Of a stretch of DNA of 64,000 bases, positions 8,032-51,214 are shown in pieces (position 1 is the stretch's first letter; each line of letters begins with the position of its first letter). Source of the DNA: Escherichia phage vB-EcoP-XT73; the sequence record OR757436.1. The stretch is one strand, 5' to 3'. The notes beneath the pieces were generated by a model. That model worked only from the letters and a program-made list of their open reading frames with translations. It was not told the origin of the DNA and did no database searches. The position numbers and the translations under genes were made by a program.

Positions 8032-8228
8032 GCGTAGTTTATGTTCTAGAAAGATATGCTGAAGATCACAACAGTATTGTTGCCATATTTAAATATGCCC
8101 CAGATGTTGAGGATATTTTGAATGTGACTCACTTAACTGATGTTGATAAAATCAAAGACCTCATCAGGAATGACAATGCCCACATAGGTGACTCTCTGTG
8201 GTCTCTTACCGAATGGACATTGTGGTGA
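8028..8228 (+). CDS. hypothetical protein
   Basis: 66-aa ORF. Confidence 0.35.
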   Translation: MSVVYVLERYAEDHNSIVAIFKYAPDVEDILNVTHLTDVDKIKDLIRNDNAHIGDSLWSLTEWTLW

Positions 8229-8410
8229 AGTGCTCTAGATGTGAAGGGACAAACCTTCATTTAAGTAACAAGGTTATCAGAGAGCTTGCCAAAGGCTCTC
8301 CAACCAAAGGGAAGAACAAACGATTTACTAACGTCAGGGTTTATACAGCAATCTGTAAAGATTGTTTAACTACTGAATGTCATTACGAAGAAATTGGAGA
8401 GCGTAAATGA
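8198..8410 (+). CDS. small Cys-rich protein
   Basis: KCSRCEG ... CKDCLTTECH; the true start may be the internal Met (MDIVVK). Confidence 0.35.
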   Translation: MVSYRMDIVVKCSRCEGTNLHLSNKVIRELAKGSPTKGKNKRFTNVRVYTAICKDCLTTECHYEEIGERK

Positions 8411-9144
8411 GTCGTCGTCAATCACGGAAAGAATCACGGAAAGACCTTCGTCGGGAAGCACTTGTCACTCGTAAGGGTAAGCGCGAGTTTGAAGAGGTGG
8501 TTTTAGCAAAGCCTGTAGTCCCTCAGAACCAGTTCCAGTCTGAACTGCTCAATGCTATCAAGACTAAACAAGTTGTGTTCACAGACGCTCCTGCGGGCTG
8601 CGGGAAGACCTTTGTAATCACTTCCACAGTTATTGATGCACTGAAGAGTGGTAAGATTCAGAAGATCATTCTGAGTCGCCCTTCTGTTGGCATGGGTAAC
8701 TCACTTGGGTTGCTTCCGGGAGGAATGCGTGAGAAATTTGAACCATATCTGATGCCAATCATTGATGTTATTACTCAGAGATATGGTAAGGGGTTCTATG
8801 AATGCCAGCTCGGTAATAGTAACATTGAGTTTGTACCTCTGGAGTATCTCCGTGGTCGTTCTTTCAATGATGCTATCGTTATCGTTGATGAGTTCCAGAA
8901 CACCACTAAAGATGAAGCCTTCTCAATCATGACTCGATTGGGAGAAACCTCTCAGCTGTTCTGCATGGGTGATACAAACCAGCATGATATGCGTGGTCGT
9001 GAGAGTGGTCTTACTTGGGCTACTAACTTTATTGATGAACATGATCTGTATGAGTTCGCTGAGATTGTAGACGGCGAATCAGATGACATTGTTCGTTCTG
9101 GTTTCTGTAAAGCTATTGTTAAAGCAATGGAAAAGAAAGCTTAA
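8407..9144 (+). CDS. phoH: PhoH-like ATPase
   Basis: Walker A APAGCGKT and Walker B-like IVIVDEFQN in the PhoH arrangement. Confidence 0.85.
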   Translation: MSRRQSRKESRKDLRREALVTRKGKREFEEVVLAKPVVPQNQFQSELLNAIKTKQVVFTDAPAGCGKTFVITSTVIDALKSGKIQKIILSRPSVGMGNSLGLLPGGMREKFEPYLMPIIDVITQRYGKGFYECQLGNSNIEFVPLEYLRGRSFNDAIVIVDEFQNTTKDEAFSIMTRLGETSQLFCMGDTNQHDMRGRESGLTWATNFIDEHDLYEFAEIVDGESDDIVRSGFCKAIVKAMEKKA

Positions 9145-9155
9145 ACAGTAACTTA

Positions 9156-9164
9156 TAATGTATA
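9156..9164 (+). promoter_or_regulatory. TAATGTATA promoter-like motif
   Basis: acttaTAATGTATAct about 40 bp upstream of the 9201 start; shared with 15352. Confidence 0.45.
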
Positions 9165-9200
9165 CTCCTTAGTGTACACTGATATATTAAGGAGTTTTAA

Positions 9201-9524
9201 ATGGCAGACCATGTAGGAAAGAGAGATTATGCACAAGAAAGACGTACCGCCATCGCAAGGGGTGAAACGGGAATTGGTAGCAAGAGCGGAGATGCTCAGC
9301 GCCACCGTGCACGTCGCATCGTTGAAAAGCGCGATGGAAAAGCTGCTGTCAGAGGTAAAGACGTTGGACACAAGCGAGCCATCAAGTCAGGAGGCTCTAA
9401 TGCGTCAAGCAACTTACGTGTTGAAACAGTCAGCGGAAATCGTTCAGCTGGCGGCAAAAGTGGAGATCGAGCTGGGAAGGCAGCTGGCGCTGCTAAGCGA
9501 AAAGGAGCTTTAAGCTCCTCGTAA
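9201..9524 (+). CDS. basic, Gly/Arg/Lys-rich low-complexity protein
   Basis: AAGGAG sits 7 nt upstream of ATG 9201. An alternative overlapping frame (9229..9513) encodes a helical-looking 94-aa product; the sequence alone does not decide between them. Confidence 0.35.
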   Translation: MADHVGKRDYAQERRTAIARGETGIGSKSGDAQRHRARRIVEKRDGKAAVRGKDVGHKRAIKSGGSNASSNLRVETVSGNRSAGGKSGDRAGKAAGAAKRKGALSSS

Positions 9525-9532
9525 TATGAGGC

Positions 9533-9565
9533 TACCCAAATGGGTGGCCTTTTCTTTTATATAAA
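9533..9565 (+). terminator. rho-independent terminator
   Basis: ggctacccaaatgggtggcc hairpin followed by ttttcttttat. Confidence 0.6.
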
Positions 9566-9592
9566 CCGAATTAAACTTCTTAGGTAATAACT

Positions 9593-9841
9593 ATGTCTAT
9601 TGTAAAAACTGTAACTATTATTGATGTAATGACTGTCCGTCTGGTTAAGTGGAAATTCACCAACAATCATGGCATTGCTAATCTCATTGCAAACCAGATT
9701 GGTCATAACCCAAAAACAGCTCGTACTAACGTAATCCTCCGTGGTGCTGATGGGAAGTTCATTTCTTATAAGAATAAAGATGTAGAGAAAGAATTCCGTG
9801 TTGCAGTAGAAAACCTCATCCCATTCCCTAAAGGAGTTTAA
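9593..9841 (+). CDS. small protein, paralogue pair B
   Basis: ...HNPKTARTNVILRGADGKFISYKNK...LIPFPKGV; paralogous to the next ORF. Confidence 0.5.
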   Translation: MSIVKTVTIIDVMTVRLVKWKFTNNHGIANLIANQIGHNPKTARTNVILRGADGKFISYKNKDVEKEFRVAVENLIPFPKGV

Positions 9842-9842
9842 T

Positions 9843-10118
9843 ATGAATAAATTAGCTATGGTTCAGATTCGAGACATATACCCTAACCATCCGGAGAAAA
9901 CTTGGTCTTATCTGTTGACTGAAAGCAAGACTATTGACACATATCTTGCAGGGGTTGACACTATCCCAACCAGTATCACATTGCTCCCTCACAAAACAGC
10001 CAGAACCCATGTGATGTTACGTGACAGCAAAGGTAAGTTTATCTCTTATCGAGATGCTCGAATCAATAGCGAAATTAAATCTGCTATGGAATCTTTAACG
10101 CCATTCCCAAAAGGTTGA
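9843..10118 (+). CDS. small protein, paralogue pair B
   Basis: ...HKTARTHVMLRDSKGKFISYRDA...LTPFPKG. Confidence 0.5.
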   Translation: MNKLAMVQIRDIYPNHPEKTWSYLLTESKTIDTYLAGVDTIPTSITLLPHKTARTHVMLRDSKGKFISYRDARINSEIKSAMESLTPFPKG

Positions 10119-10281
10119 GTGATGAAAGAATATATTTACGTAGGAAAGCGCTGGGTCGGTGATGAATGGGAAGGTGGATACAGCGTTGTGAAAGCTTTTA
10201 AGTCTGAAGAAGATGCTAAGGCGTGGGTCTTAAAAGATGACGTTGGTGAGAGAACTTACATTGAAGTAGAGGTGGAGTAGA

Positions 10282-10698
10282 ATGCCATTACCAGCTAGAC
10301 ATCAAAACAGATTCCTAGTTCTCAAGTGGGATGATATCGAAATGAATCTCACTGAACACGAACTTGATTTGTTCCATGAACTGTTGTCAGAGATTCGCTC
10401 TGGTATCCCTGATCGTCAGTATGTAGTTATCAGTGATAAGCACCCTCAAGAGTTTGAAGAAGTTTGGGGTATGAAGTTAGCTTATATCCAGAGAGCTATT
10501 CGAGAAAGAGAAGAAGTCGCTAACCAAAGGGTTGTGGCCCATTTAGTACGAGAGCAACCTCGTGAAGCTGGGGCTAACCATGCACCACCTCCTCCTCGTA
10601 CAGTTATCAATGGGATGGTTAGGGCTTATAGTGACGAAGCTACCATGTTAGATGTGGTAGAAGATAACCAAGCATTTACAGATTTACTTTACCAATAA
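10282..10698 (+). CDS. hypothetical protein
   Basis: 138-aa ORF immediately upstream of the polymerase-domain gene. Confidence 0.45.
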   Translation: MPLPARHQNRFLVLKWDDIEMNLTEHELDLFHELLSEIRSGIPDRQYVVISDKHPQEFEEVWGMKLAYIQRAIREREEVANQRVVAHLVREQPREAGANHAPPPPRTVINGMVRAYSDEATMLDVVEDNQAFTDLLYQ

Positions 10699-10714
10699 TT
10701 TAAAGGAGTATAAA

Positions 10715-12559
10715 GTGAGCAACCCGGACGCTCTCCCATTTTTGACAGAGATGACTGTCGCTGATATAATCTCTAAGCAAGCGAAGCACGGAGTGAGTTT
10801 CAACCGAAGAAATGCTCGGTGGTATGTTCACCTCCTTAAAGAGATTATTGTTAATATTGACAAAGAACTGATTCCTCTCTTACCTAAGATGCGATTAGAT
10901 GGCTCTACTTACATGAAACCATTTAAGAAGTCTGGAGCTTTACAGAAATGGCCTCAAGCCTATTGTGATAGAGTTGGACTTAAGAGAGAAGACATTGGTG
11001 GAGCATTCACCTGTGTTGAATACGTAGACTTTGACCCATCGAAAGATGCACGAGTTAAAGAAGCCCTTATGGATGAGGGTTTTCTTCCTCCAGAGTTTAA
11101 CGTATCAAAGAAACCTTGGAATACTTTTGAAATCAAGAAAGATATGCGAAAGTATGGAACATACCAAGCATGGTATTCAGCTTGGATGCGAGGTAATGCT
11201 AAACAGAAGCAGACAGCCGAGATGGTTGACGCTGATATTAGGAAGTTCTTAGAAAAGCATTTTAGGTTTAAGACTAAGAACTATATGAAGGCTTATGTAT
11301 TTGGTTTAGGTTTAAATCCTAACCGACGTAGACCTATCACTTTTGACGAGATTAAGATAGCACTAGCTACCTCAAACAAGTGGCCTACAGCTCCTACAAA
11401 CCTCGAGGAGACTCTTGAAGAAGGGTTAGGGGGTGAGTTAGGAAGTGTCGGAAGTTTGCTTAAGAGACGCGTTGTAGCGGCTCACAGGCTAGGTCTTATC
11501 AGTGGACTAATAGCAAAGGAACGCGAAGATGGTAAACTTTCGGCAGAAGCTAACAGCTGCGCTACGCCGACTTTTCGATTCAAACATCGTATCGTGGTTA
11601 ATATTCCCTCCCGTGGTTTGTTTGGTCATGAGTGTCGCAGTTTGTTTGAGTCTGACTATAACTCAGATGATGATCACTCTCGTCCTTTCGTTATTACTAA
11701 CGTTGTTCCTGATGGTTGTTATATACGAAAAGGTACTAACGTAATTTACGAGAAAGGTAAGCCGGGGAAGAAAGATAAGCCTGTAGGTGCTTACAAATAT
11801 TACATACCCGCTGGTAAAGAAGTATTCTTAGGGTATGATGGTTCTGGGTTAGAGTTGCGTATGCTGGTACATTATCTAGTAAAAGAGTGCCTTGATATGA
11901 TGGAGGAGGCTAAACTAGAAAATGACAAAGTTAAATATCTAAGAGCTGAGAAAGGCTTAGAAGCTGCCTATACATACAGAGATGTACTGCTGTCTGGTGA
12001 TATTCATTCCCACAATCAGAAACTCGCTGGGCTTCCAACTCGTGACAATGCAAAAACCTTCATCTATGGATTCCTGTATGGAGCAGGAGCAGCTAAAATT
12101 GGGGAAATAGTTGGAGGGGGTGCTCAAGAAGGTGAAATTCTTAGAGAGCGATTCTTAGCGGAATGTCCTTGTATTCCTATCGTACTGGAGAGAGTTCAGG
12201 CCCGAGCGGAATCAGGCACTTTGGAAGGTGTGGATGGTCGTAAGTTAACTATGAGACGAGATGCTACTGGTAAGGTTATGGTGCATAAAGCACTGAATAC
12301 TCTACTTCAGAGTGCAGGTGCCATTGTCATGAAGTACTCTATTCTGTTTACAAACAAATGGGTAGAGCAGCAGAATATTAGAGGAAACAAAGTGATCGAT
12401 TATCATGATGAAGCACAGTGGTCTGTCAACCGTAACGACGTTGATAAAATGAAGAAGATAGCTGAGACTTGTGTTAAGAAGGCAGGTGAATATCTAAACA
12501 TGCACTGTGAACTAGCTTCTGATTGTAAAATCGGATTGAATTGGATGCAAACTCACTAA
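10715..12559 (+). CDS. DNA polymerase fragment 2: family A polymerase domain (T7 gp5-like)
   Basis: DGSGLELRMLVHY, GDIHSHNQKLAGLPTRDNAKTFIYGFLYGAG, ALNTLLQSAGA and YHDEAQ match T7 gp5 (DASGLELRCLAHF, GDIHTKNQ...PTRDNAKTFIYGFLYGAG, ALNTLLQSAGA, VHDEIQ). GTG start after AAAGGAG. The N-terminus aligns with T7 residues just after the exo domain. Confidence 0.9.
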   Translation: MSNPDALPFLTEMTVADIISKQAKHGVSFNRRNARWYVHLLKEIIVNIDKELIPLLPKMRLDGSTYMKPFKKSGALQKWPQAYCDRVGLKREDIGGAFTCVEYVDFDPSKDARVKEALMDEGFLPPEFNVSKKPWNTFEIKKDMRKYGTYQAWYSAWMRGNAKQKQTAEMVDADIRKFLEKHFRFKTKNYMKAYVFGLGLNPNRRRPITFDEIKIALATSNKWPTAPTNLEETLEEGLGGELGSVGSLLKRRVVAAHRLGLISGLIAKEREDGKLSAEANSCATPTFRFKHRIVVNIPSRGLFGHECRSLFESDYNSDDDHSRPFVITNVVPDGCYIRKGTNVIYEKGKPGKKDKPVGAYKYYIPAGKEVFLGYDGSGLELRMLVHYLVKECLDMMEEAKLENDKVKYLRAEKGLEAAYTYRDVLLSGDIHSHNQKLAGLPTRDNAKTFIYGFLYGAGAAKIGEIVGGGAQEGEILRERFLAECPCIPIVLERVQARAESGTLEGVDGRKLTMRRDATGKVMVHKALNTLLQSAGAIVMKYSILFTNKWVEQQNIRGNKVIDYHDEAQWSVNRNDVDKMKKIAETCVKKAGEYLNMHCELASDCKIGLNWMQTH

Positions 12560-45184: not shown

Positions 45185-46726
45185 TTAGTAGCTCTGATTC
45201 CATCTGCTTACGTTTGCCTCATACAAAGAAGCGCTTCCGTAGCTAACATCATGCTTAGAGCGACCACGATGTGTAACAGAGCACGCTGAATAGCGCATTG
45301 CATCCATTAAGTCATCATGTTCTTTAATAATCTTACCAACCTTACGGTGATATCTAGCTTTCTCTTCGAATAGCTTAGCGTTAGCGGCTGTGTTAAAGAC
45401 TTTAAAGCGTCCACTCATCATTCTTTCTCGGATATCTGTGATTCCCGGTTCTACAAAGAAGTTCTTTTTACCATCCATTCCAATTTTGTTGTAGAAGGTC
45501 TCACTCTGTACGTTAACTCCTGCATTCTTATAGAATTGAGCAACAGATGAGCCACTACCTTTCTCAGTATTGTCCGCATCATGCGGTAGGATGACAGGAA
45601 TCCACTGACCACGACCATTAATAGCTGGAGCATGATACACTGGAGTAAAGCCACCTTCTTTATATGAGTCGTAAACATAGATAGTATCCGTGTTTGCATC
45701 GTAAGCTGTCCAAACAGCAGCAGTTGGGTGATCAATACCAATATCAATTGCACAGACACGTTTCCACGTATCAGGAATTTCGAATGGTTCACATTTAATT
45801 GTGTCATCCGATACATCATATATCAAACCACTTCCTAACAATGGCATACCTTTTGAACGCATCTCTAACTGCCACGCTGGAATACCTTCAGTCATATCTT
45901 TTATATCTTGGTCAGTGATGTGTCCACCTAGGTCTGCATGAGCATCCCACCAAGAAGCATTCTGGAAATACAGAGAACCTGTGTTCTCATCTCCTTCACC
46001 TTTCATAAATTTATCTACCAGTTCAGTTAAACCGTTCTCTGGTGTAGCTGTAATTGTAACTAGACCTTTAGTTGTGAGTGTACGTGTGACGCACTGTGCG
46101 AATATAGCCATAGACTCGTATGGATCTTCTTCGTCTAACCAAATGTAGTCAACTGTTGCACCCATCAATGTGTGTTCACCCTGTTGGGTTGAACGGAATT
46201 CTAATGTACTTAAACCGTCAAACTCTCCTCTCTCATTTTGATGTTTGATTTGTACGATTTGAAGTTTGTTACCATCTCGTTCTATCGTATCAATGACGAT
46301 AGCATCACGAGGAATGACACCTGTCCCTAATAAATTTGTATCCTTTCCGATAGGTGTACCAAACAATTCCTTTTGCAATACTTTCCTTGTGGAATCCCCT
46401 GTAATACCAACTGCCCATGCTAAGATAGGTCTTTTAAATTTATATCCTGTCCACCAAGTTGGGTAGCGACCTGTGACATGACAAGCAAACTCGTATGCCT
46501 CGCTATAAGATTTACCAACACGGTTCGCTGCACACAAGAATCTAAAGCGATGCTTCAATCCTGCTGCATAAAATTTCTTTTGGAAGTCATACGCCTTGAA
46601 AGACAAAATCTTATTATACTTCCTCCATTGGTCACGCTCTTTCAACATATTCAATAGTGCTTTCTTTTCGTCTACACTAAGGTTGTTACCAGTTAGAGCT
46701 TCATAAATTTGTTTATCTAATGACAT
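45185..46726 (-). CDS. terminase large subunit
   Basis: 513 aa with Walker A-like AANRVGKS and Walker B-like VDYIWLDEED, then a nuclease-type C-terminal half. Confidence 0.8.
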   Translation of the reverse strand: MSLDKQIYEALTGNNLSVDEKKALLNMLKERDQWRKYNKILSFKAYDFQKKFYAAGLKHRFRFLCAANRVGKSYSEAYEFACHVTGRYPTWWTGYKFKRPILAWAVGITGDSTRKVLQKELFGTPIGKDTNLLGTGVIPRDAIVIDTIERDGNKLQIVQIKHQNERGEFDGLSTLEFRSTQQGEHTLMGATVDYIWLDEEDPYESMAIFAQCVTRTLTTKGLVTITATPENGLTELVDKFMKGEGDENTGSLYFQNASWWDAHADLGGHITDQDIKDMTEGIPAWQLEMRSKGMPLLGSGLIYDVSDDTIKCEPFEIPDTWKRVCAIDIGIDHPTAAVWTAYDANTDTIYVYDSYKEGGFTPVYHAPAINGRGQWIPVILPHDADNTEKGSGSSVAQFYKNAGVNVQSETFYNKIGMDGKKNFFVEPGITDIRERMMSGRFKVFNTAANAKLFEEKARYHRKVGKIIKEHDDLMDAMRYSACSVTHRGRSKHDVSYGSASLYEANVSRWNQSY

Positions 46727-46887: not shown

Positions 46888-47361
46888 TTAACTCTCGTCC
46901 GCTTCCTCCCCCTTTTCAGCGTCCTCAGAGTTGTCTTCTTCTGGAGGCATAACGTCGATACCAAGTGCTCCAGTCAAGAAGTCCTTGATTTGTGCATTCA
47001 ATGATTCTTCGTTAATTACATTCTCTTCCTCAATCTTAACTTCAACAGAGGCCGCCTTAGGATATACCAGATCTGCAACTTTTGATGCAGCCTTGAATCT
47101 AAGATCAGGTGGAATATTAGGATCTTCGTAAATTTGAATTAACACTTCATCAGGAGACAAATGACTTGCAGCAACACGGTCCAACATTAATTGTGTCAGT
47201 TTACCTCTACTACCTCTGGGTCGTCCGAATTTATTTCCCTTTTGAAACTTCCCATTGCTTGGGTTCATACCACGGCCTTCAAGTTCTTCCGTTACTCCGG
47301 GTAATCTTCCTGTAATCTCAGCTACCTGTGCAGGCGTGAGTTCTCCGTTTTCTCCAAACAT
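46888..47361 (-). CDS. terminase small subunit (candidate)
   Basis: 157 aa with GNKFGRPRGSRG and an acidic C-terminus, directly upstream of TerL. Confidence 0.55.
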   Translation of the reverse strand: MFGENGELTPAQVAEITGRLPGVTEELEGRGMNPSNGKFQKGNKFGRPRGSRGKLTQLMLDRVAASHLSPDEVLIQIYEDPNIPPDLRFKAASKVADLVYPKAASVEVKIEEENVINEESLNAQIKDFLTGALGIDVMPPEEDNSEDAEKGEEADES

Positions 47362-47417
47362 TTTATACTCCTTCTACATTATCAACAACACAAAAAGCCT
47401 CCCAAGGGAGGCAAACA

Positions 47418-48050
47418 TTACTTACAATCACCAACGGACAGGTTAAACATCTTACCTAAAGTAACTATCTCACCCTCCCACGGAAGTTCTACACCCTTCT
47501 CTTCCTCTAAAAGAATAGAGCCGTCGACCAAAAATTTTTCGTAGTCTCGCAGTGCGTCGTCTACTAACTCACTCTTGTGAATCCACGTAATTGTTTCTGT
47601 ACCATCTTCTTCGATTCGAACATCACGATGCCATTCATCTTTAGAGGTAATGTAATCATGGAGCATTTCATATTCAGCTTCTTCAATCATCTCAATCATT
47701 GCACGAGCATAGTCAGGAAGGTGATCATGTTTAGTAGATTCATATTCAACTACTTCCAGAGTAGATGGTTGTGTTTTAGTTTTAGAGTTAGGGCGAGTAG
47801 TATGAATCAAATCTAACATGTTTTTGTTCTCCGTAATATTTGGTTTAAGAATACTTCCACTATACAAATCTTGTACAGCCAGTCCTGAGATGTTTCCCAT
47901 AGTTTCTAAATGTTGTAAGCTACAACCAGAGCGACATAGCTGTGAATTATACTCGTTAAGGTCCATCGCTTGGGTGTGGAAAGGAGAGCCAGAAGGGAAA
48001 CTACCTCCATAAATACCTTCCATGTTACGTGCGATTATTTGATTATTCAT
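47418..48050 (-). CDS. hypothetical protein
   Basis: 210-aa ORF at the head of the minus-strand block. Confidence 0.45.
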   Translation of the reverse strand: MNNQIIARNMEGIYGGSFPSGSPFHTQAMDLNEYNSQLCRSGCSLQHLETMGNISGLAVQDLYSGSILKPNITENKNMLDLIHTTRPNSKTKTQPSTLEVVEYESTKHDHLPDYARAMIEMIEEAEYEMLHDYITSKDEWHRDVRIEEDGTETITWIHKSELVDDALRDYEKFLVDGSILLEEEKGVELPWEGEIVTLGKMFNLSVGDCK

Positions 48051-48297
48051 CTGTCTCTCCCTTGCTGTAATCTTTATACGTTTCTACTTTGTAAGTGCAG
48101 AATGCTCTAAAGAAGAGCCAACCTAAGCTACTCACATCAATGGTAATATCGAAATCTGTTTCATCATCTAGGTCAACAAGACGACCTAAGCATGTAGCTT
48201 CCATCCCATCTTCAGAGTCACTATTGACTACGAAAGCGTATGTCTCCGTTCTGAACCGAGGCACTATCTCTGATAAAAAGTCTAATACTAAATTCAT
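48043..48297 (-). CDS. hypothetical protein
   Basis: 84-aa acidic ORF, first gene of the minus-strand block; RBS AGGAG. Confidence 0.45.
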   Translation of the reverse strand: MNLVLDFLSEIVPRFRTETYAFVVNSDSEDGMEATCLGRLVDLDDETDFDITIDVSSLGWLFFRAFCTYKVETYKDYSKGETDE

Positions 48298-48342
48298 AAC
48301 TCTTCTCCTCTGAATAAGAGTATAAAGGGCTAGTCATATCTA

Positions 48343-49281
48343 ACCCGTAAAGGCCACGTCATCAAAGATGACTACCTCATACTAACAACCCGTGTACTCT
48401 GAAGTAAAGGGCATGTCATAAAGGCACCCTCATGTTAAGGCCATGTCATTAGTCATACTTGATACATCTTGCTATAGAGAAGCAGATGAATAAACAGAAG
48501 ACTATTACTAACCAAAAGATTATTTCCATTAAGACCTATCCACCCACGTACTGAATCTCAACTTACCACATTCCTTACACTTCCATGTTGATAGGTAGAG
48601 ACCGTGTATTCTTTCATCCCCGTAAGCTTTACGAAGAAGGTAGTAATTGTGCTTACACTTCATCCGTCTAAATACTTTAATTAGATTCATTAAGTTCTCT
48701 CTTAAGCTTATATATAACAGTTCAAAATTCTGATTTGACCGAGTGGGGCTAGGCCCTCTGCGGCGAATTGTTAAAAAGGGGGAGTCCTCAAATAAAAAAT
48801 GGTTATTGGCAATGCCTTTACACCTTCTTCCACGTTCCAACCTTTCCCCGTGCCTACTCCCCGTAATTATTTCCCCGTGTATACCATCCTATTCATTACC
48901 TACCCGTTTATTTAGTACCCCTTTACTGAATGGATGAAAGGCTAGCACTGTATAGGCACATTCATAACCAGGATAATAATACCGTATTGTTACCGTTCAG
49001 CTCCCCATAGTTTGATTGTAAATAGTTTCAATAGTGATTGTTATGAGTGCAATAATGATGTATGTATTAATTAAGTGGATAATGGTTGATGTGTGTTATT
49101 GTTTCTTTTAATTACTTTCTTTTTCAGCGTGCATGAGCGTAGCGAATGGTCTTTGATGTTTGAGTTATACAATTATTTAAGTGGTATATTATTACCGCAC
49201 TATCTGGCAATGTTCCCCCGTGGTCTGTCCTGCGGTTGTATGTTCCCCGTCCTATAGAGATAGTAGAAATATTTTACCCGT
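48343..49281. repeat. non-coding region with at least 9 dispersed copies of a (T)(T)CCCCGT(G/A) motif and 3 copies of a CA(T/C)GTCAT motif
   Basis: Copies seen at about 48343, 48388, 48617, 48846, 48859, 48873, 48902, 49216, 49245 and 49276; lies between the divergent minus and plus blocks with no convincing ORF. Confidence 0.6.
48529..48664 (-). CDS. small zinc-ribbon-like protein
   Basis: MKCKHNYYLLRKAYGDERIHGLYLSTWKCKECGKL shares a C-K-H ... C-K-x-C-G pattern with the small ORFs at 58889 and 59062; weak RBS. Confidence 0.3.
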
Positions 49282-49554
49282 AGGACTTGCTTTCTTTATT
49301 AAGAAGTAGTAAATTGTATTCATCGAAGCGAAGCAGTGATGCAAAGTAGCTAGATGGTAGTAAGCTCCATGAAGGATAATCGTCCTAAGTAGTGGAGAAT
49401 GTTTAAAGATAAGGACTCTGCGATTGACTGGTGAAAGCTGGAACACTATCGAGTCAGTGAAGAGGCCAACTGAGCAATGGCCCTACGTATAAAAGAGAAA
49501 TACGTGCTATCTTGTGAAACATGAAACCAAATACACATCAATGAGGATTCACAA

Positions 49555-50046
49555 ATGGCTAAAGTAATGCAGGTAGTTAATCTGGCAAGCTATGTACTGG
49601 TTGCCGCGATCGGTGTTAGTGCACTGGTAACATCTCTTTCTGATAAGGCTATCGCTAGTCCAGCTCCTGCAACTAATGCCGCTGATGTTTTCGCTAGTTC
49701 CATTAATAAAGGTTGGATGATTTGCAACGGTGCGGATAGTGACGGCAATACCATCGCGTTAAAGATGAAATTTAGTAACGTAACAAATGAAGGCGTTCTC
49801 TTTCAATCTAAGACGTTGGATGGTCAGCCTAACAGTGATCTGGTACTCAAGCGTGCTGATAATGATGCGGATATGGTGACGTATGGCACTGTACAACGTT
49901 ACGAAGACGTTAAAGCTGTAACCAACCTAGTGAGTTATGGTCCGGTCAATGAGTCGATGATTGCTACCACTGTTTACAATAACGCTGATAACGCTGTTTA
50001 TACTATTCACGTTAATCTGTCAAATTGTATTAAAGCTAGCAAATGA
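49555..50046 (+). CDS. secreted/periplasmic protein (signal-peptide-like N-terminus)
   Basis: MAKVMQVVNLASYVLVAAIGVSALVTSLS; RBS GAGGA. Confidence 0.5.
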   Translation: MAKVMQVVNLASYVLVAAIGVSALVTSLSDKAIASPAPATNAADVFASSINKGWMICNGADSDGNTIALKMKFSNVTNEGVLFQSKTLDGQPNSDLVLKRADNDADMVTYGTVQRYEDVKAVTNLVSYGPVNESMIATTVYNNADNAVYTIHVNLSNCIKASK

Positions 50047-50150
50047 AAAAATTAATTTGCAATACTAGCTCAACCTTGCTATCTTTAGCTTTCACCGCGA
50101 TTGCTACGGCAATAGCATATTATGTTCTTGTTGTTTTGGGAGTGTAGGTT

Positions 50151-50402
50151 ATGGCTATCAAAGAAGTTAAATTGTCTAACGGTTTTTCCTGTTTCGTCGG
50201 TCGTTCTGAAATCATGTTTAATACACTTGATGGTCAGATAACTTTTCCTATCGTCACTTTTTGCAAGATGGAATATCAGCCTCTTAAGGACTGGTTAGCC
50301 TTTGCTAATTTCGAAATTAACCGCGATGACTTCCGCTCAATCTATATTGACGGTGATTTGACTCTGGCTAACCTGCTTAGTGAAGGATTAATACATGGCT
50401 AA
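50151..50402 (+). CDS. hypothetical protein
   Basis: 83-aa ORF. Confidence 0.4.
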   Translation: MAIKEVKLSNGFSCFVGRSEIMFNTLDGQITFPIVTFCKMEYQPLKDWLAFANFEINRDDFRSIYIDGDLTLANLLSEGLIHG

Positions 50403-50848: not shown

Positions 50849-51214
50849 ATGTGGTTTATTAAATTCGTCGTTAAAACGGTTGTAGGCTTTTTTCTGGTTG
50901 TTCTTCTGTTGGGTGTCCTGCTATCAGCTATGGGTAGCGTTAAGGCTGCAACATTTTCCCCTGCTACGGTTGACGGCTTGCAATGTACCTACCTTGTAGA
51001 AAACTATTCGACTGGTAAAAAGTCACCTAAGGTTATTATTTTACATGTAAATGATTTCGAGCATGTACAATCATACGCTAAGACTATTCAGCTAGTGAAT
51101 GAAACCACTGGCAAACAAATCACGGTCGATCACTTGATGCGCTCGTCGTTGACGCTCTTTGACGAGTCTATGAATGAAGTAGAATCCGGTAACGGTCAGT
51201 GTGTAAATCCTTAA
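50849..51214 (+). CDS. membrane-anchored or secreted protein
   Basis: N-terminal hydrophobic stretch VVGFFLVVLLLGVLLSAMGSVKA. Confidence 0.45.
   Translation: MWFIKFVVKTVVGFFLVVLLLGVLLSAMGSVKAATFSPATVDGLQCTYLVENYSTGKKSPKVIILHVNDFEHVQSYAKTIQLVNETTGKQITVDHLMRSSLTLFDESMNEVESGNGQCVNP

Follow-up and report, generated by a model that had tools for sequence, protein, structure and literature searches.

Several members of the genus Kuravirus (Gordonclarkvirinae) have had their genome ends determined. For phiEco32, terminal repeats of 193 bp are reported, with restriction analysis, primer walking and subcloning as the mapping methods, and in its sequence record nucleotides 1-193 are identical to nucleotides 77362-77554 at the other end. 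The ends of SU10 were recognized from sharp drop-offs in read coverage, those of Paul by PhageTerm analysis and those of YF01 from full-length nanopore reads. In phiEco32 and SU10, sigma70 early promoters have been described to either side of the repeat, and among the potential sigma70 promoters in Table S2 of the SU10 report is one that precedes CDS1. For YF01, an HHpred match of the small terminase (TerS) to the TerS of PaP3 was described. The literature on the phiEco32-type repeat, apart from two of its reports (Savalia 2008; Pavlova 2012), mentions an internal repeat CCCTTTTTTA and a conserved segment at 130-170, and no CCCCGT arrays. Judged by search results, the literature that links a CCCCGT motif with phiEco32 or Kuravirus holds incidental co-occurrences only.

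The window, by which is meant the whole stretch of 64,000 nucleotides analysed here, belongs to Escherichia phage vB-EcoP-XT73 (OR757436.1), and its closest relatives are Kuravirus phages. Positions 48298-49554 had been singled out by a sequence-only reading as lying between divergent virion and early-type blocks, next to the packaging genes, and this setting was confirmed. The leftward virion and packaging block, which contains the gene of the large terminase TerL (45185-46726; Pfam Terminase_6N/6C), adjoins the region on the left, where an 84-aa ORF ends at 48297, and the rightward block of small genes begins at 49555. The region is 97% identical in phage XT18. With good confidence, it is probably the place where the two genome ends of a phiEco32-like Kuravirus podophage meet in the concatemer junction, with the cut sites and motifs described below as its parts. 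A genome terminus or packaging site was among the candidates named beforehand, and it is supported by homology to the mapped phiEco32 repeat, by the annotated repeat of YF01 and by the ends of deposited records.

The direct terminal repeat and its cut sites

The counterpart of the phiEco32 repeat is a 193-bp direct terminal repeat (DTR) at 48751-48943 (minus strand), present as a single collapsed copy. Nucleotide 1 of phiEco32 corresponds to window position 48943 and nucleotide 193 to 48751, and the two sequences align over the full 193 nt without gaps at 87.5% identity; identity to 14 other genomes ranges from 86 to 97%. The window runs on contiguously past the DTR on both sides, and so represents a collapsed concatemer junction with one DTR copy; beyond the DTR it passes into the unique sequence of the phiEco32 right end. 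On the phiEco32 map, the DTR falls between the small operon upstream of TerS and TerL and the last leftward-read early gene. Other records place their ends at the same two positions. In YF01, the DTR annotated from nanopore reads begins at the equivalent of 48751. Among independently deposited linear records, that of IMEP8 starts or ends at this same position, and those of WFI101126, KM01 and IME267 start at the equivalent of 48943. For XT73 itself, we infer the ends from homology to these mapped ends.

Both boundaries of the DTR coincide with CTAG, which would be cut as CT/AG (the slash marking the putative cut). The predicted inner cut, placed by the phiEco32 repeat boundary, is found at 48749-48752, between 48750 and 48751, and CTAG occurs at an equal offset from the conserved 12-mer core of the repeat (see below) in SU7, EK010, KBNP1711 and the distant relatives L034 and L035. 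The predicted outer cut, placed by the phiEco32 boundary and by relatives, lies at 48942-48945, between 48943 and 48944, in the sequence GAAAGGCT/AGCACTG. GGCTAG is present at this cut in eight of nine aligned relatives, the ninth (MN03) having GGCCAG, and it is at this position that the WFI101126, KM01 and IME267 records begin. Inverted AAAGGGG/CCCCTTT arms at the repeat ends were considered as well; they are present in Kuravirus and missing in SU7 and KBNP1711, and were dropped.

The conserved 12-mer and the small terminase

Within the DTR, a core consisting of AAAAAGGGGGAGTCCTCA and a following AAAAAA (48773-48799, minus strand) is invariant in 15 Kuravirus genomes and is also present in SU7, EK010 and KBNP1711. 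It contains the 12-mer GAGGACTCCCCC (48778-48789, minus strand), which lies some 25 nt inside the predicted inner cut. The 12-mer occurs exactly once in each of four distant relatives with genomes of 88-100 kb (L032-L035), where it adjoins the same promoter-like element as in the window and where the remainder of the repeat is unalignable. It is kept once per locus even where the TerS-like protein is only 64-75% identical, and across relatives its conservation equals that of TerS. From sequence conservation, this 12-mer is most likely the primary terminase recognition element, or at least the best candidate for it.

The TerS-like protein of 157 aa is encoded at 46888-47361, directly upstream of TerL and 1.4 kb from the DTR sites. 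In a profile search of the PDB, its best matches were two small terminases, both below significance (7joq, E 0.05; 6w7t, E 0.17), and a single-sequence search of the PDB returned nothing relevant.

The CCCCGT and CCCGT arrays

The region was said to contain at least nine copies of (T)(T)CCCCGT(G/A). This number holds for the relaxed core CCCGT, of which there are ten copies, and not for the longer forms: CCCCGT occurs six times (48618, 48846, 48859, 48873, 49216 and 49245) and CCCCGT[GA] five times. The further CCCGT copies start at 48344, 48389, 48903 and 49277, and all ten are on the plus strand, with none on the minus strand of the region. The density of the motif relative to the rest of the genome, proposed earlier as a check, was found to be strongly raised. 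The five CCCCGT[GA] copies are all those of the 64-kb window; the other 62.7 kb contain CCCCGT five times on the plus strand and three times on the minus strand, and other stretches of 1257 bp have at most three CCCGT per strand. In an unbiased scan of 614 k-mers, CCCGT was the top 5-mer (10 observed vs 0.35 expected, P ~6e-12) and CCCCGT the top 6-mer. Tandem Repeats Finder at a minimum score of 30 reported nothing, the repeats being dispersed and short.

Most of the copies form two arrays on the plus strand. One is located in the DTR (48845-48908; cores at 48847, 48860, 48874 and 48903), where the offsets from the repeat end (-96, -83, -69 and -40) are the same in every one of 15 Kuravirus genomes. 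The distance of these sites is 36-96 bp to the outer cut and 97-157 bp to the inner one. The other is situated in unique sequence to the right of the DTR (49214-49282; cores at 49217, 49246 and 49277), with cores 29-31 bp apart at about +275, +304 and +334 from the DTR, again in 15 of 15 genomes. An invariant block CCCCATAGTT (49003-49012, plus strand), 60 bp outside the DTR, holds a CCCAT-type copy of the motif. Two cores (48344 and 48389) are found in the left leader of the 84-aa gene, embedded among the 15-nt repeats described below, and the CCCGT at 48619 is inside a zinc-ribbon gene, at a place that encodes AYGDE. The spacings between sites are 13, 14, 29, 29 and 31 bp, around a conserved core of 5-9 nt. 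Such spacings match no geometry known for TerS sites or for iterons.

The motif is conserved beyond what its surroundings would suggest. The core of the right array has 14 invariant columns out of 15, its neighbourhood 26 out of 81 (P = 1e-5), and the flanks differ; over all seven sites, 34 of 35 columns are invariant in the core and 251 of 525 elsewhere (P = 9e-10). The G of the motif is invariant in all 105 Kuravirus copies, and not a single copy on the opposite strand was found within 800 bp in the 15 Kuravirus genomes. Arrays are present at the same two places in Nieuwekanaalvirus and Suseptimavirus; they persist in three genera in spite of surrounding sequence that is unalignable. In these other genera the copies are partly CCCAT, and many orthologous copies have changed from CCCGT to CCCAT in Suseptimavirus. 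The CCCCGT and CCCGT sites are conserved, strand-oriented cis elements.

The left early operon

To the left of the DTR, at its inner edge, an element with GGTCAAATCAGAATTTT, AACT and TTATATATAAG (48706-48740, minus strand) is a putative promoter for the early operon that runs leftward. It is conserved in all genera, including L033-L035, and the potential promoter listed upstream of CDS1 in SU10 matches the GGTCAAATCAGAATTTT/TTATATATAAG element. The region had been described as having no convincing gene, which is contradicted by a conserved gene for a 53-aa zinc-ribbon protein (MNLIKVFRRMKCKHNYY...CKECGK...) at 48529-48690 (minus strand; phrog_7696, E 3e-16). This gene was recovered in 17 of 18 related genomes examined, in two alleles, and 18 of its 28 variable sites are at the third codon position. 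Its stop codon is overlapped (TAATG) by the start of a possible ORF for a hydrophobic peptide of 26 aa (MEIIFWLVIVFCLFICFSIARCIKYD; 48449-48529, minus strand), which was read from the sequence and also occurs in 7 of 15 Kuravirus genomes.

Three copies of CA[TC]GTCAT had been noted, and these were indeed found (48355, 48412 and 48442). They are better described through a 15-mer, T[AT]AAGG[GC][CA]NN[CG]TCAT, with five copies (48323, 48348, 48405, 48419 and 48435) that is found nowhere else in the 64 kb on either strand. The copies, units of 14-16 nt reading RTGANNNNSCCTTWA on the minus strand (repeat family D1), occupy 48323-48449 in the leader of the 84-aa gene, and CATGTCAT is part of this unit, located between the small genes of the leftward early operon. 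There are two to five copies per genome in the 15 Kuravirus genomes and three to five in SU7, EK010 and KBNP1711. A coding role of the block was rejected, as a unit length of 14-16 nt does not keep the frame. At 48327-48346, a 7-bp hairpin precedes a U-rich tail; the fold of the minus-strand RNA of the block has z = -1.96, with 9 of 200 shuffles folding equally well, which lends weak support to a structure. The left side is thus laid out as promoter-like element, 53-aa gene, possible 26-aa ORF, 15-nt repeats and then the 84-aa and 210-aa genes. The CCCCGT and CATGTCAT families are separate features, the former of the repeat and its right flank, the latter of the intergenic spaces of the left early operon.

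The right leader

Between the DTR and the right array, a conserved AT-rich non-coding stretch extends over 48944-49213. Its GC content is 30-32% between about 49000 and 49200, and it includes invariant blocks of 40 nt (49043-49083) and 30 nt (49119-49150). A predicted promoter, an extended -10-like element TGGTATATT at 49182-49190, points rightward and is conserved. This leader with its promoter-like elements may feed the rightward early genes. A divergent promoter array had been among the suggestions for the region. The early promoters reported in phiEco32 and SU10 speak for it in part; in a scan with promoter consensus sequences, promoter-like sites were not enriched, with four found vs 8.6 expected in shuffles. 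Terminator-like hairpins numbered three vs 1.3 expected, which is not decisive, and Rfam covariance models gave no match at E <= 1 in 47800-50100.

Role of the arrays

The homology to mapped ends is a direct observation, as is the finding that the motifs are enriched, share one orientation and are conserved; as for their reader and purpose, junction processing or packaging is what we infer as the most likely role. After replication into head-to-tail concatemers with one repeat per junction, in the manner of T7, the terminase (TerL with the 157-aa TerS-like protein) would recognize the junction, with the 12-mer GAGGACTCCCCC as its primary recognition element, and would cut at the two CT/AG sites 193 bp apart. 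Fill-in synthesis would then duplicate the repeat, so that each virion DNA would have it at both ends. The CCCCGT/CCCGT sites (four in the repeat, three about 275-335 bp to the right and two in the left leader) would serve a sequence-specific protein that aids the recognition or processing of the junction. That this protein is TerS itself is not supported. The window's TerS-like protein shares about 91% identity with its counterparts in SU7 and EK010, and many sites of these two phages are CCCAT; the lack of co-variation between site and TerS weakens the idea that TerS reads CCCCGT. Two further proposals were rejected by reasoning: Chi-like end protection, as the orientation of the motif is the same at both ends of a direct repeat, and a rut site on the C-rich strand, as no transcription unit reads into the repeat that way.

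It is conceivable, if rather doubtful, that the oriented YCCCRT sites, comprising the four sites of the repeat, the invariant CCCCAT, the three sites about 300 bp outside and the copies in the left leader, form an array for a phage-encoded sequence-specific protein other than TerS that organizes the concatemer junction. The specificity of such a protein would have been relaxed from G to A/G in Suseptimavirus. Looping of the two arrays might, for example, position the two staggered terminase cuts, or the protein might link the processing of the ends to early transcription or to replication. In that case, there would be a first handle on the role of short oriented repeat arrays at T7-type ends.

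A role in replication, which had also been among the candidates named beforehand, is an unlikely alternative explanation of the arrays, by which they would be iteron-like origin sites that bracket an AT-rich unwinding region (about 49000-49200) near a promoter, as in the primary origin of T7. The low GC content between the arrays is as expected of an unwinding region, the two invariant non-coding blocks fall within it, the extended -10-like element is immediately upstream of the right array, TGGTC-type sequences (CCCGTGGTCTG) come after the motifs and the oriented direct repeats are conserved across genera. Against this, a short core with irregular spacing is unlike iterons, which are phased at 17-22 bp, no neighbouring protein has a replication-initiator domain, four of the sites are inside the terminal repeat itself and the GC skew simply tracks the switch in transcription direction. 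The same -10-like element, with the right array just downstream of it, would also suit a reading of the motifs as operators, likewise suggested beforehand, at which a regulator encoded by the phage would control the divergent early transcription units. The two left copies in the leader of the 84-aa gene and the early promoters described for phiEco32 and SU10 would suit it as well. We regard operators as quite improbable, because promoter-like sites are not enriched, the leftward promoter-like element has the DTR array more than 100 bp behind it, and CCCCGT[GA] is absent from the rest of the window, including the stretch expected to hold the other early promoters known from SU10; moreover, the inhibitor of early transcription in phiEco32, gp79, targets RNA polymerase and not DNA.

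The motifs might also have no function of their own, as a by-product of the strong bias of C over G on this strand or as sequence duplicated within the repeat and inherited by descent. The GC skew does reach -0.52 at 48800-48899, and close relatives share much sequence by descent. The conservation data disfavour this explanation and leave it with a very slight chance: the core is invariant where the flanks have been replaced, the arrays persist in three genera without alignable surroundings and CCCGT is the single most enriched 5-mer of the region.

For annotators, what appears as a non-coding gap is probably a physical genome end. Judging from the homology, the true chromosome of XT73 would start at 48943 (minus strand) and have the stretch 48751-48943 twice. 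Among the deposited Kuravirus records, many are permuted or were trimmed wrongly at their ends. Kuraviruses are under development for phage therapy. For packaging in a DTR phage, the region brings together a small set of candidate cis elements, with two CT/AG cuts, a deeply kept 12-mer and an oriented array.

Comparison with known systems

Some likeness exists to the cos and pac sites of other phages, such as the R-sites of lambda cosB and the pacL and pacR sites around pacC of SPP1, in that short sites are repeated within a few hundred base pairs of a cut, near the terminase genes. As in the description of SPP1, two clusters flank the cut site. The ends of the window are, unlike these, a DTR and neither cohesive nor headful ends, the spacing of the sites differs and the TerS-like protein shows no co-variation with the motif; the arrays are candidate sites in this sense.

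The junction of T7 is similar in its architecture. There, too, a short exact terminal repeat, of 160 bp, is found beside early promoters, and a short motif recurs in one orientation, both within the repeat and in unique DNA to its left and right. CCTAAAG occurs three times in the T7 repeat, eight times just right of the left repeat and twice just left of the right repeat, all 13 copies of the end regions being on the plus strand and none on the minus strand; the window counterpart is four, three and two. The CCTAAAG repeats of T7 have long been noted and are not known to have a defined function. The likeness is architectural only, since the motifs differ (CCTAAAG and YCCCGT), the junctions show no sequence similarity and the phage families are unrelated. 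In the window, moreover, about 270 bp of conserved AT-rich DNA come between the repeat and the right array, and whereas T7 has its own RNA polymerase, Kuraviruses redirect the host polymerase by means of a phage sigma factor.

The nearest system is that of the Kuravirus phages phiEco32, SU10, YF01 and Paul. Sequence divergence of the phiEco32 repeat from that of the window is about 12%, and the neighbouring genes differ: phiEco32 has the other zinc-ribbon allele, the window is without a phi32_2-like ORF, and the first early gene encodes 163 aa in the window as against 290 aa in phiEco32. The repeat itself is homologous and of the same length of 193 bp, without indels. It occupies the same place, with the gene-1 operon upstream of the terminase on one side and the last early gene on the other, and it contains the same internal blocks, namely GAGGACTCCCCCTTTTT, four ACGGG sites and the CT/AG boundaries. 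As a genome end, the region is thus a feature already known from these phages, to which the CCCCGT arrays add a modest new detail.

Terminal-repeat junction

The region at 48298-49554 matched 79 phage records in a megablast search, nearly all from Escherichia/Shigella phages that belong to Kuravirus (a genus of the subfamily Gordonclarkvirinae); vB-EcoP-XT18 matched best, with 96.9% identity across the entire query. The ORF map showed that the virion genes form a long leftward block reaching 48297, which includes TerL (45185-46726, Pfam Terminase_6N/6C), and that small genes run rightward from 49555 on; the sequence-only reading had thus correctly placed the region between the virion/packaging block and a rightward block. 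Three small proteins at 47418-48050, 50151-50402 and 50849-51214 have homologues called 'ABC transporter' (210 aa), 'polymerase' (83 aa) and 'terminase' (121 aa). The PHROG names echo these labels, none of which is backed by a Pfam domain; they look like propagated mis-annotations. In a 100-kb relative (locus L035, Logan SRR24234332_7058), a GIY-YIG endonuclease ORF separates the two SU10_portal pieces (446 aa and 291 aa) of a split portal gene at 8137-11192, which looks like a homing endonuclease or intron insertion.

The reference record of phiEco32 is linear, and its first and last 193 nt are identical. This repeat aligns without gaps to 48943..48751 of the window (minus strand), with phiEco32 left-end genes continuing on one side and phiEco32 right-end unique sequence on the other; hence, the window represents a circularised, concatemer-type assembly in which both terminal repeats were merged into one. 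The 193-bp repeats of phiEco32 were mapped by restriction profiling, primer walking and subcloning, those of SU10 by sharp read drop-offs pointing to blunt ends, those of Paul with PhageTerm and those of YF01 on full-length nanopore reads, and 30 phages of the group were assigned repeats of 192-193 bp by similarity. The position matching 48751 is where the annotated repeat_region of YF01 begins and the deposited IMEP8 record ends, and the position matching 48943 is where the deposited records of WFI101126, KM01 and IME267 begin. The earlier proposal of a genome terminus is supported by the homology of 48751-48943 to the mapped phiEco32 repeat and by these coinciding ends, and on this comparison the region can be taken with high confidence as the terminal-repeat junction of a Kuravirus. 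Both the repeat and where it lies were known before for this genus.

Boundaries and conserved core of the repeat

Both boundaries of the repeat fall in the middle of CTAG, the inner one reading GGGGCT/AGGCCC (48750/48751) and the outer one AAGGCT/AGCACT (48943/48944). The GGCTAG of the outer boundary is present in 8 of 9 aligned relatives, and the inner CTAG in SU7 and EK010 (Suseptimavirus), KBNP1711 (Nieuwekanaalvirus) and two distant loci (L034, L035). Provided that the cut sites are homologous, a true repeat length of about 250 bp would follow for SU7 and EK010, and of about 207 bp for KBNP1711. The linear records of SU7 (NC_070980) and EK010 (LC553734) carry end duplications of 53 bp and about 140 bp, respectively, both finishing in GGCTAG, and these deposited ends look mis-trimmed.

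Alignment of 15 Kuravirus genomes revealed three invariant stretches within the repeat, namely AAAAAGGGGGAGTCCTCA..TAAAAAA at 48773-48799, TTCCCCGTGC.TACTCCCCGT.ATT.TT.CCCCGT, and CTACCCGTT.A.TTAGT.CCCCTTTA. One 12-mer, GAGGACTCCCCC (48778-48789, minus strand), is conserved much deeper than Kuravirus: four loci were taken from relatives of 88-100 kb with a TerS-like protein of only 64-75% identity, and each has exactly one copy, about 25 nt from CTAG (or CTAT) and about 60 nt from a shared ..CTTATATATAAGG element, while the rest of the repeat could not be aligned there. This makes the 12-mer the strongest candidate for a primary recognition signal of the terminase. It is proposed, with moderate confidence, that the terminase recognises this core and cuts at both CT/AG sites.

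Oriented CCCCGT-type arrays

The region holds exact CCCCGT six times, CCCCGT[GA] five times and the core CCCGT ten times (48344, 48389, 48619, 48847, 48860, 48874, 48903, 49217, 49246 and 49277), all on the plus strand. The sequence-only reading had counted at least nine copies of (T)(T)CCCCGT(G/A), a figure that holds for the relaxed core and not for the stricter forms. The enrichment over the rest of the genome that it led one to expect was found: the other 62.7 kb contain CCCCGT 5 + 3 times on the two strands and CCCCGT[GA] not at all, and CCCGT never exceeds 3 copies per strand in any other stretch of 1257 bp. When k-mers were scanned without bias, the strongest enrichment among 5-mers was that of CCCGT (10 copies against 0.35 expected; P about 6e-12, 614 k-mers), and among 6-mers that of CCCCGT.

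Four cores lie in the repeat at -96, -83, -69 and -40 from the outer boundary in 15/15 Kuravirus genomes, and three more cores, or four in some genomes, form a second group in unique DNA at about +275, +304 and +334; no opposite-strand CCCGT occurs within 800 bp in any of the 15. Of the core columns, 34/35 are invariant, compared with 251/525 of the others (Fisher P = 9e-10); in the right group taken by itself, where the core is kept while flanking sequence has been exchanged between lineages, the corresponding figures are 14/15 vs 26/81 (P = 1e-5). In KBNP1711, the repeat carries five CCCGT and one CCCAT, with four CCCGT to its right. The arrays of SU7 and EK010 occupy the same places as in Kuravirus, with orthologous copies reading CCCAT at three of four positions in the repeat and two of six in the right group, and the left-leader copies are also of CCCAT type (ACGGGTT to ATGGGTT). 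Because of these CCCAT copies the motif is written YCCCRT, whose G is, in the genomes aligned, strictly kept in Kuravirus and relaxed in Suseptimavirus.

Left flank

A conserved element, ..GGTCAAATCAGAATTTT.AACT.TTATATATAAG (48740-48706, minus strand), adjoins the repeat and was listed by the SU10 authors as a potential sigma70 promoter upstream of CDS1. Left of the repeat, SDYTW1, 172-1 and O18-011 carry a tandem duplicate of promoter-like ATTTTAAAC..TATATA. An ORF of 53 aa follows (48690-48529, minus strand) with a zinc-ribbon C-x-H ... C-x-x-C pattern and a match to phrog_7696 (E 3e-16). It was found in 17 of 18 genomes examined, in two allelic forms, with 18 of 28 variable sites at the third codon position and 15 synonymous-only codons vs 7 with amino-acid changes; the view that no convincing gene is present must therefore be dropped. 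In phiEco32 (NC_010324), the annotated phi32_1 (296-496) is in another frame than the zinc-ribbon ORF (253-417), and this annotation is probably wrong, given the presence of the zinc-ribbon frame in 17 genomes with third-position-biased variation. A hydrophobic ORF of 26 codons, MEIIFWLVIVFCLFICFSIARCIKYD (48449-48529, minus strand), whose start overlaps the zinc-ribbon stop, occurs in 7 of 15 Kuravirus genomes; phiEco32 lacks it.

The three copies of CA[TC]GTCAT noted earlier were recovered as part of a longer unit, T[AT]AAGG[GC][CA]NN[CG]TCAT (repeat family D1; minus-strand form RTGANNNNSCCTTWA). This unit has five copies, at 48323, 48348, 48405, 48419 and 48435; the rest of the window contains none on either strand. 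These 15-nt units number 2-5 per genome and are partly tandem, with ACGGGTT interspersed; their periods vary from 14 to 16 nt, which rules them out as coding sequence. At its end the block has a hairpin (48346-48327), behind which come a U-rich tract and the ribosome-binding site for an 84-aa gene; the fold z-score of the block is only -1.96. Comparable blocks lie upstream of other small ORFs in relatives and are present in all three genera. Our reading of the 15-nt units is that they may be intercistronic elements within the left early operon, e.g. RNA hairpins or shared gene-boundary cassettes.

For the phiEco32 sigma factor (gp36), a promoter consensus tAATGTAtA has been reported upstream of gene 6. 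A matching TAATGTA at 47375-47381 (minus strand), 14 nt upstream of the TerS-like gene, corresponds to this late promoter and would place the genes to its right in an early or unclassified left-end operon, in agreement with SU10.

Right flank

Directly after the repeat, about 55 bp are variable, followed by about 200 bp of conserved AT-rich DNA (30-32% GC) with invariant blocks at 49043-49083 and 49119-49150; CCCCATAGTT at 49003 is also invariant. A predicted extended -10-like TGGTATATT (49182-49190) precedes the right CCCGT group. SU10, SU7, DE5 and FH3 have a canonical TTGACA-16-TATAGT promoter ahead of the first early gene, where the window has a different segment. The first rightward gene (49555-50046, 163 aa) equals residues 129-290, the C-terminal part, of a 290-aa family whose members occupy this place in phiEco32, YF01 and Paul, and the 325 bp upstream of it replace 627 bp of phiEco32; hence, the first early gene and its promoter region exist in two alternative forms. 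As a generic promoter scan of the region gave no enrichment, promoter positions in this phage are predictions only.

Candidate readers and role of the arrays

The 157-aa protein directly upstream of TerL (46888-47361) was described in the YF01 paper as a putative small terminase by its HHpred match to PaP3 TerS. A single-sequence PDB search with it gave no relevant match. With a profile of 13 homologues, small-terminase structures ranked first (7joq_I, E 0.05) and third (6w7t_I, E 0.17), the matches being colinear and of equal length, yet below significance. Its conservation parallels that of the 12-mer core.

The arrays are favoured here as elements of junction recognition or processing, since they lie in and around the repeat in a single orientation and have a parallel in T7. 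The simplest version would have them read by TerS. Against this, the TerS-like proteins of Kuravirus and Suseptimavirus share about 91% identity and thus show no co-variation with the motif's G-to-A change; the zinc-ribbon protein likewise does not track the motif, having two alleles of quite different sequence within Kuravirus, all with CCCGT arrays. The arrays may instead be part of a replication origin, a possibility that gains from the conserved AT-rich segment bracketed by the two arrays, or they may be operators for divergent early promoters, which is also possible. That they are a pure by-product of base composition is unlikely, because cores were retained while their flanks were exchanged.

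No mention of the YCCCRT arrays, the deep conservation of the 12-mer or the CT/AG boundaries was found in the literature covered, a scope outside which the two primary phiEco32 papers fall. The oriented arrays are a modest, testable new detail of an ordinary and largely explained feature.

Comparison with phage T7

The T7 reference has a 160-bp repeat, identical at its two ends. CCTAAAG is found three times inside this repeat, eight times within the first 175 bp after the left copy and twice just before the right copy; none is on the other strand. These repeats are said to have been noted by Dunn and Studier in 1983, at genome sequencing, and they are not known to have a firmly established role. 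Chung and Hinkle (1990) reportedly located the T7 packaging signals at the concatemer junction, and the Privateer paper cites their work as well. The junctions of T7 and Kuravirus are alike in architecture but differ in motif.
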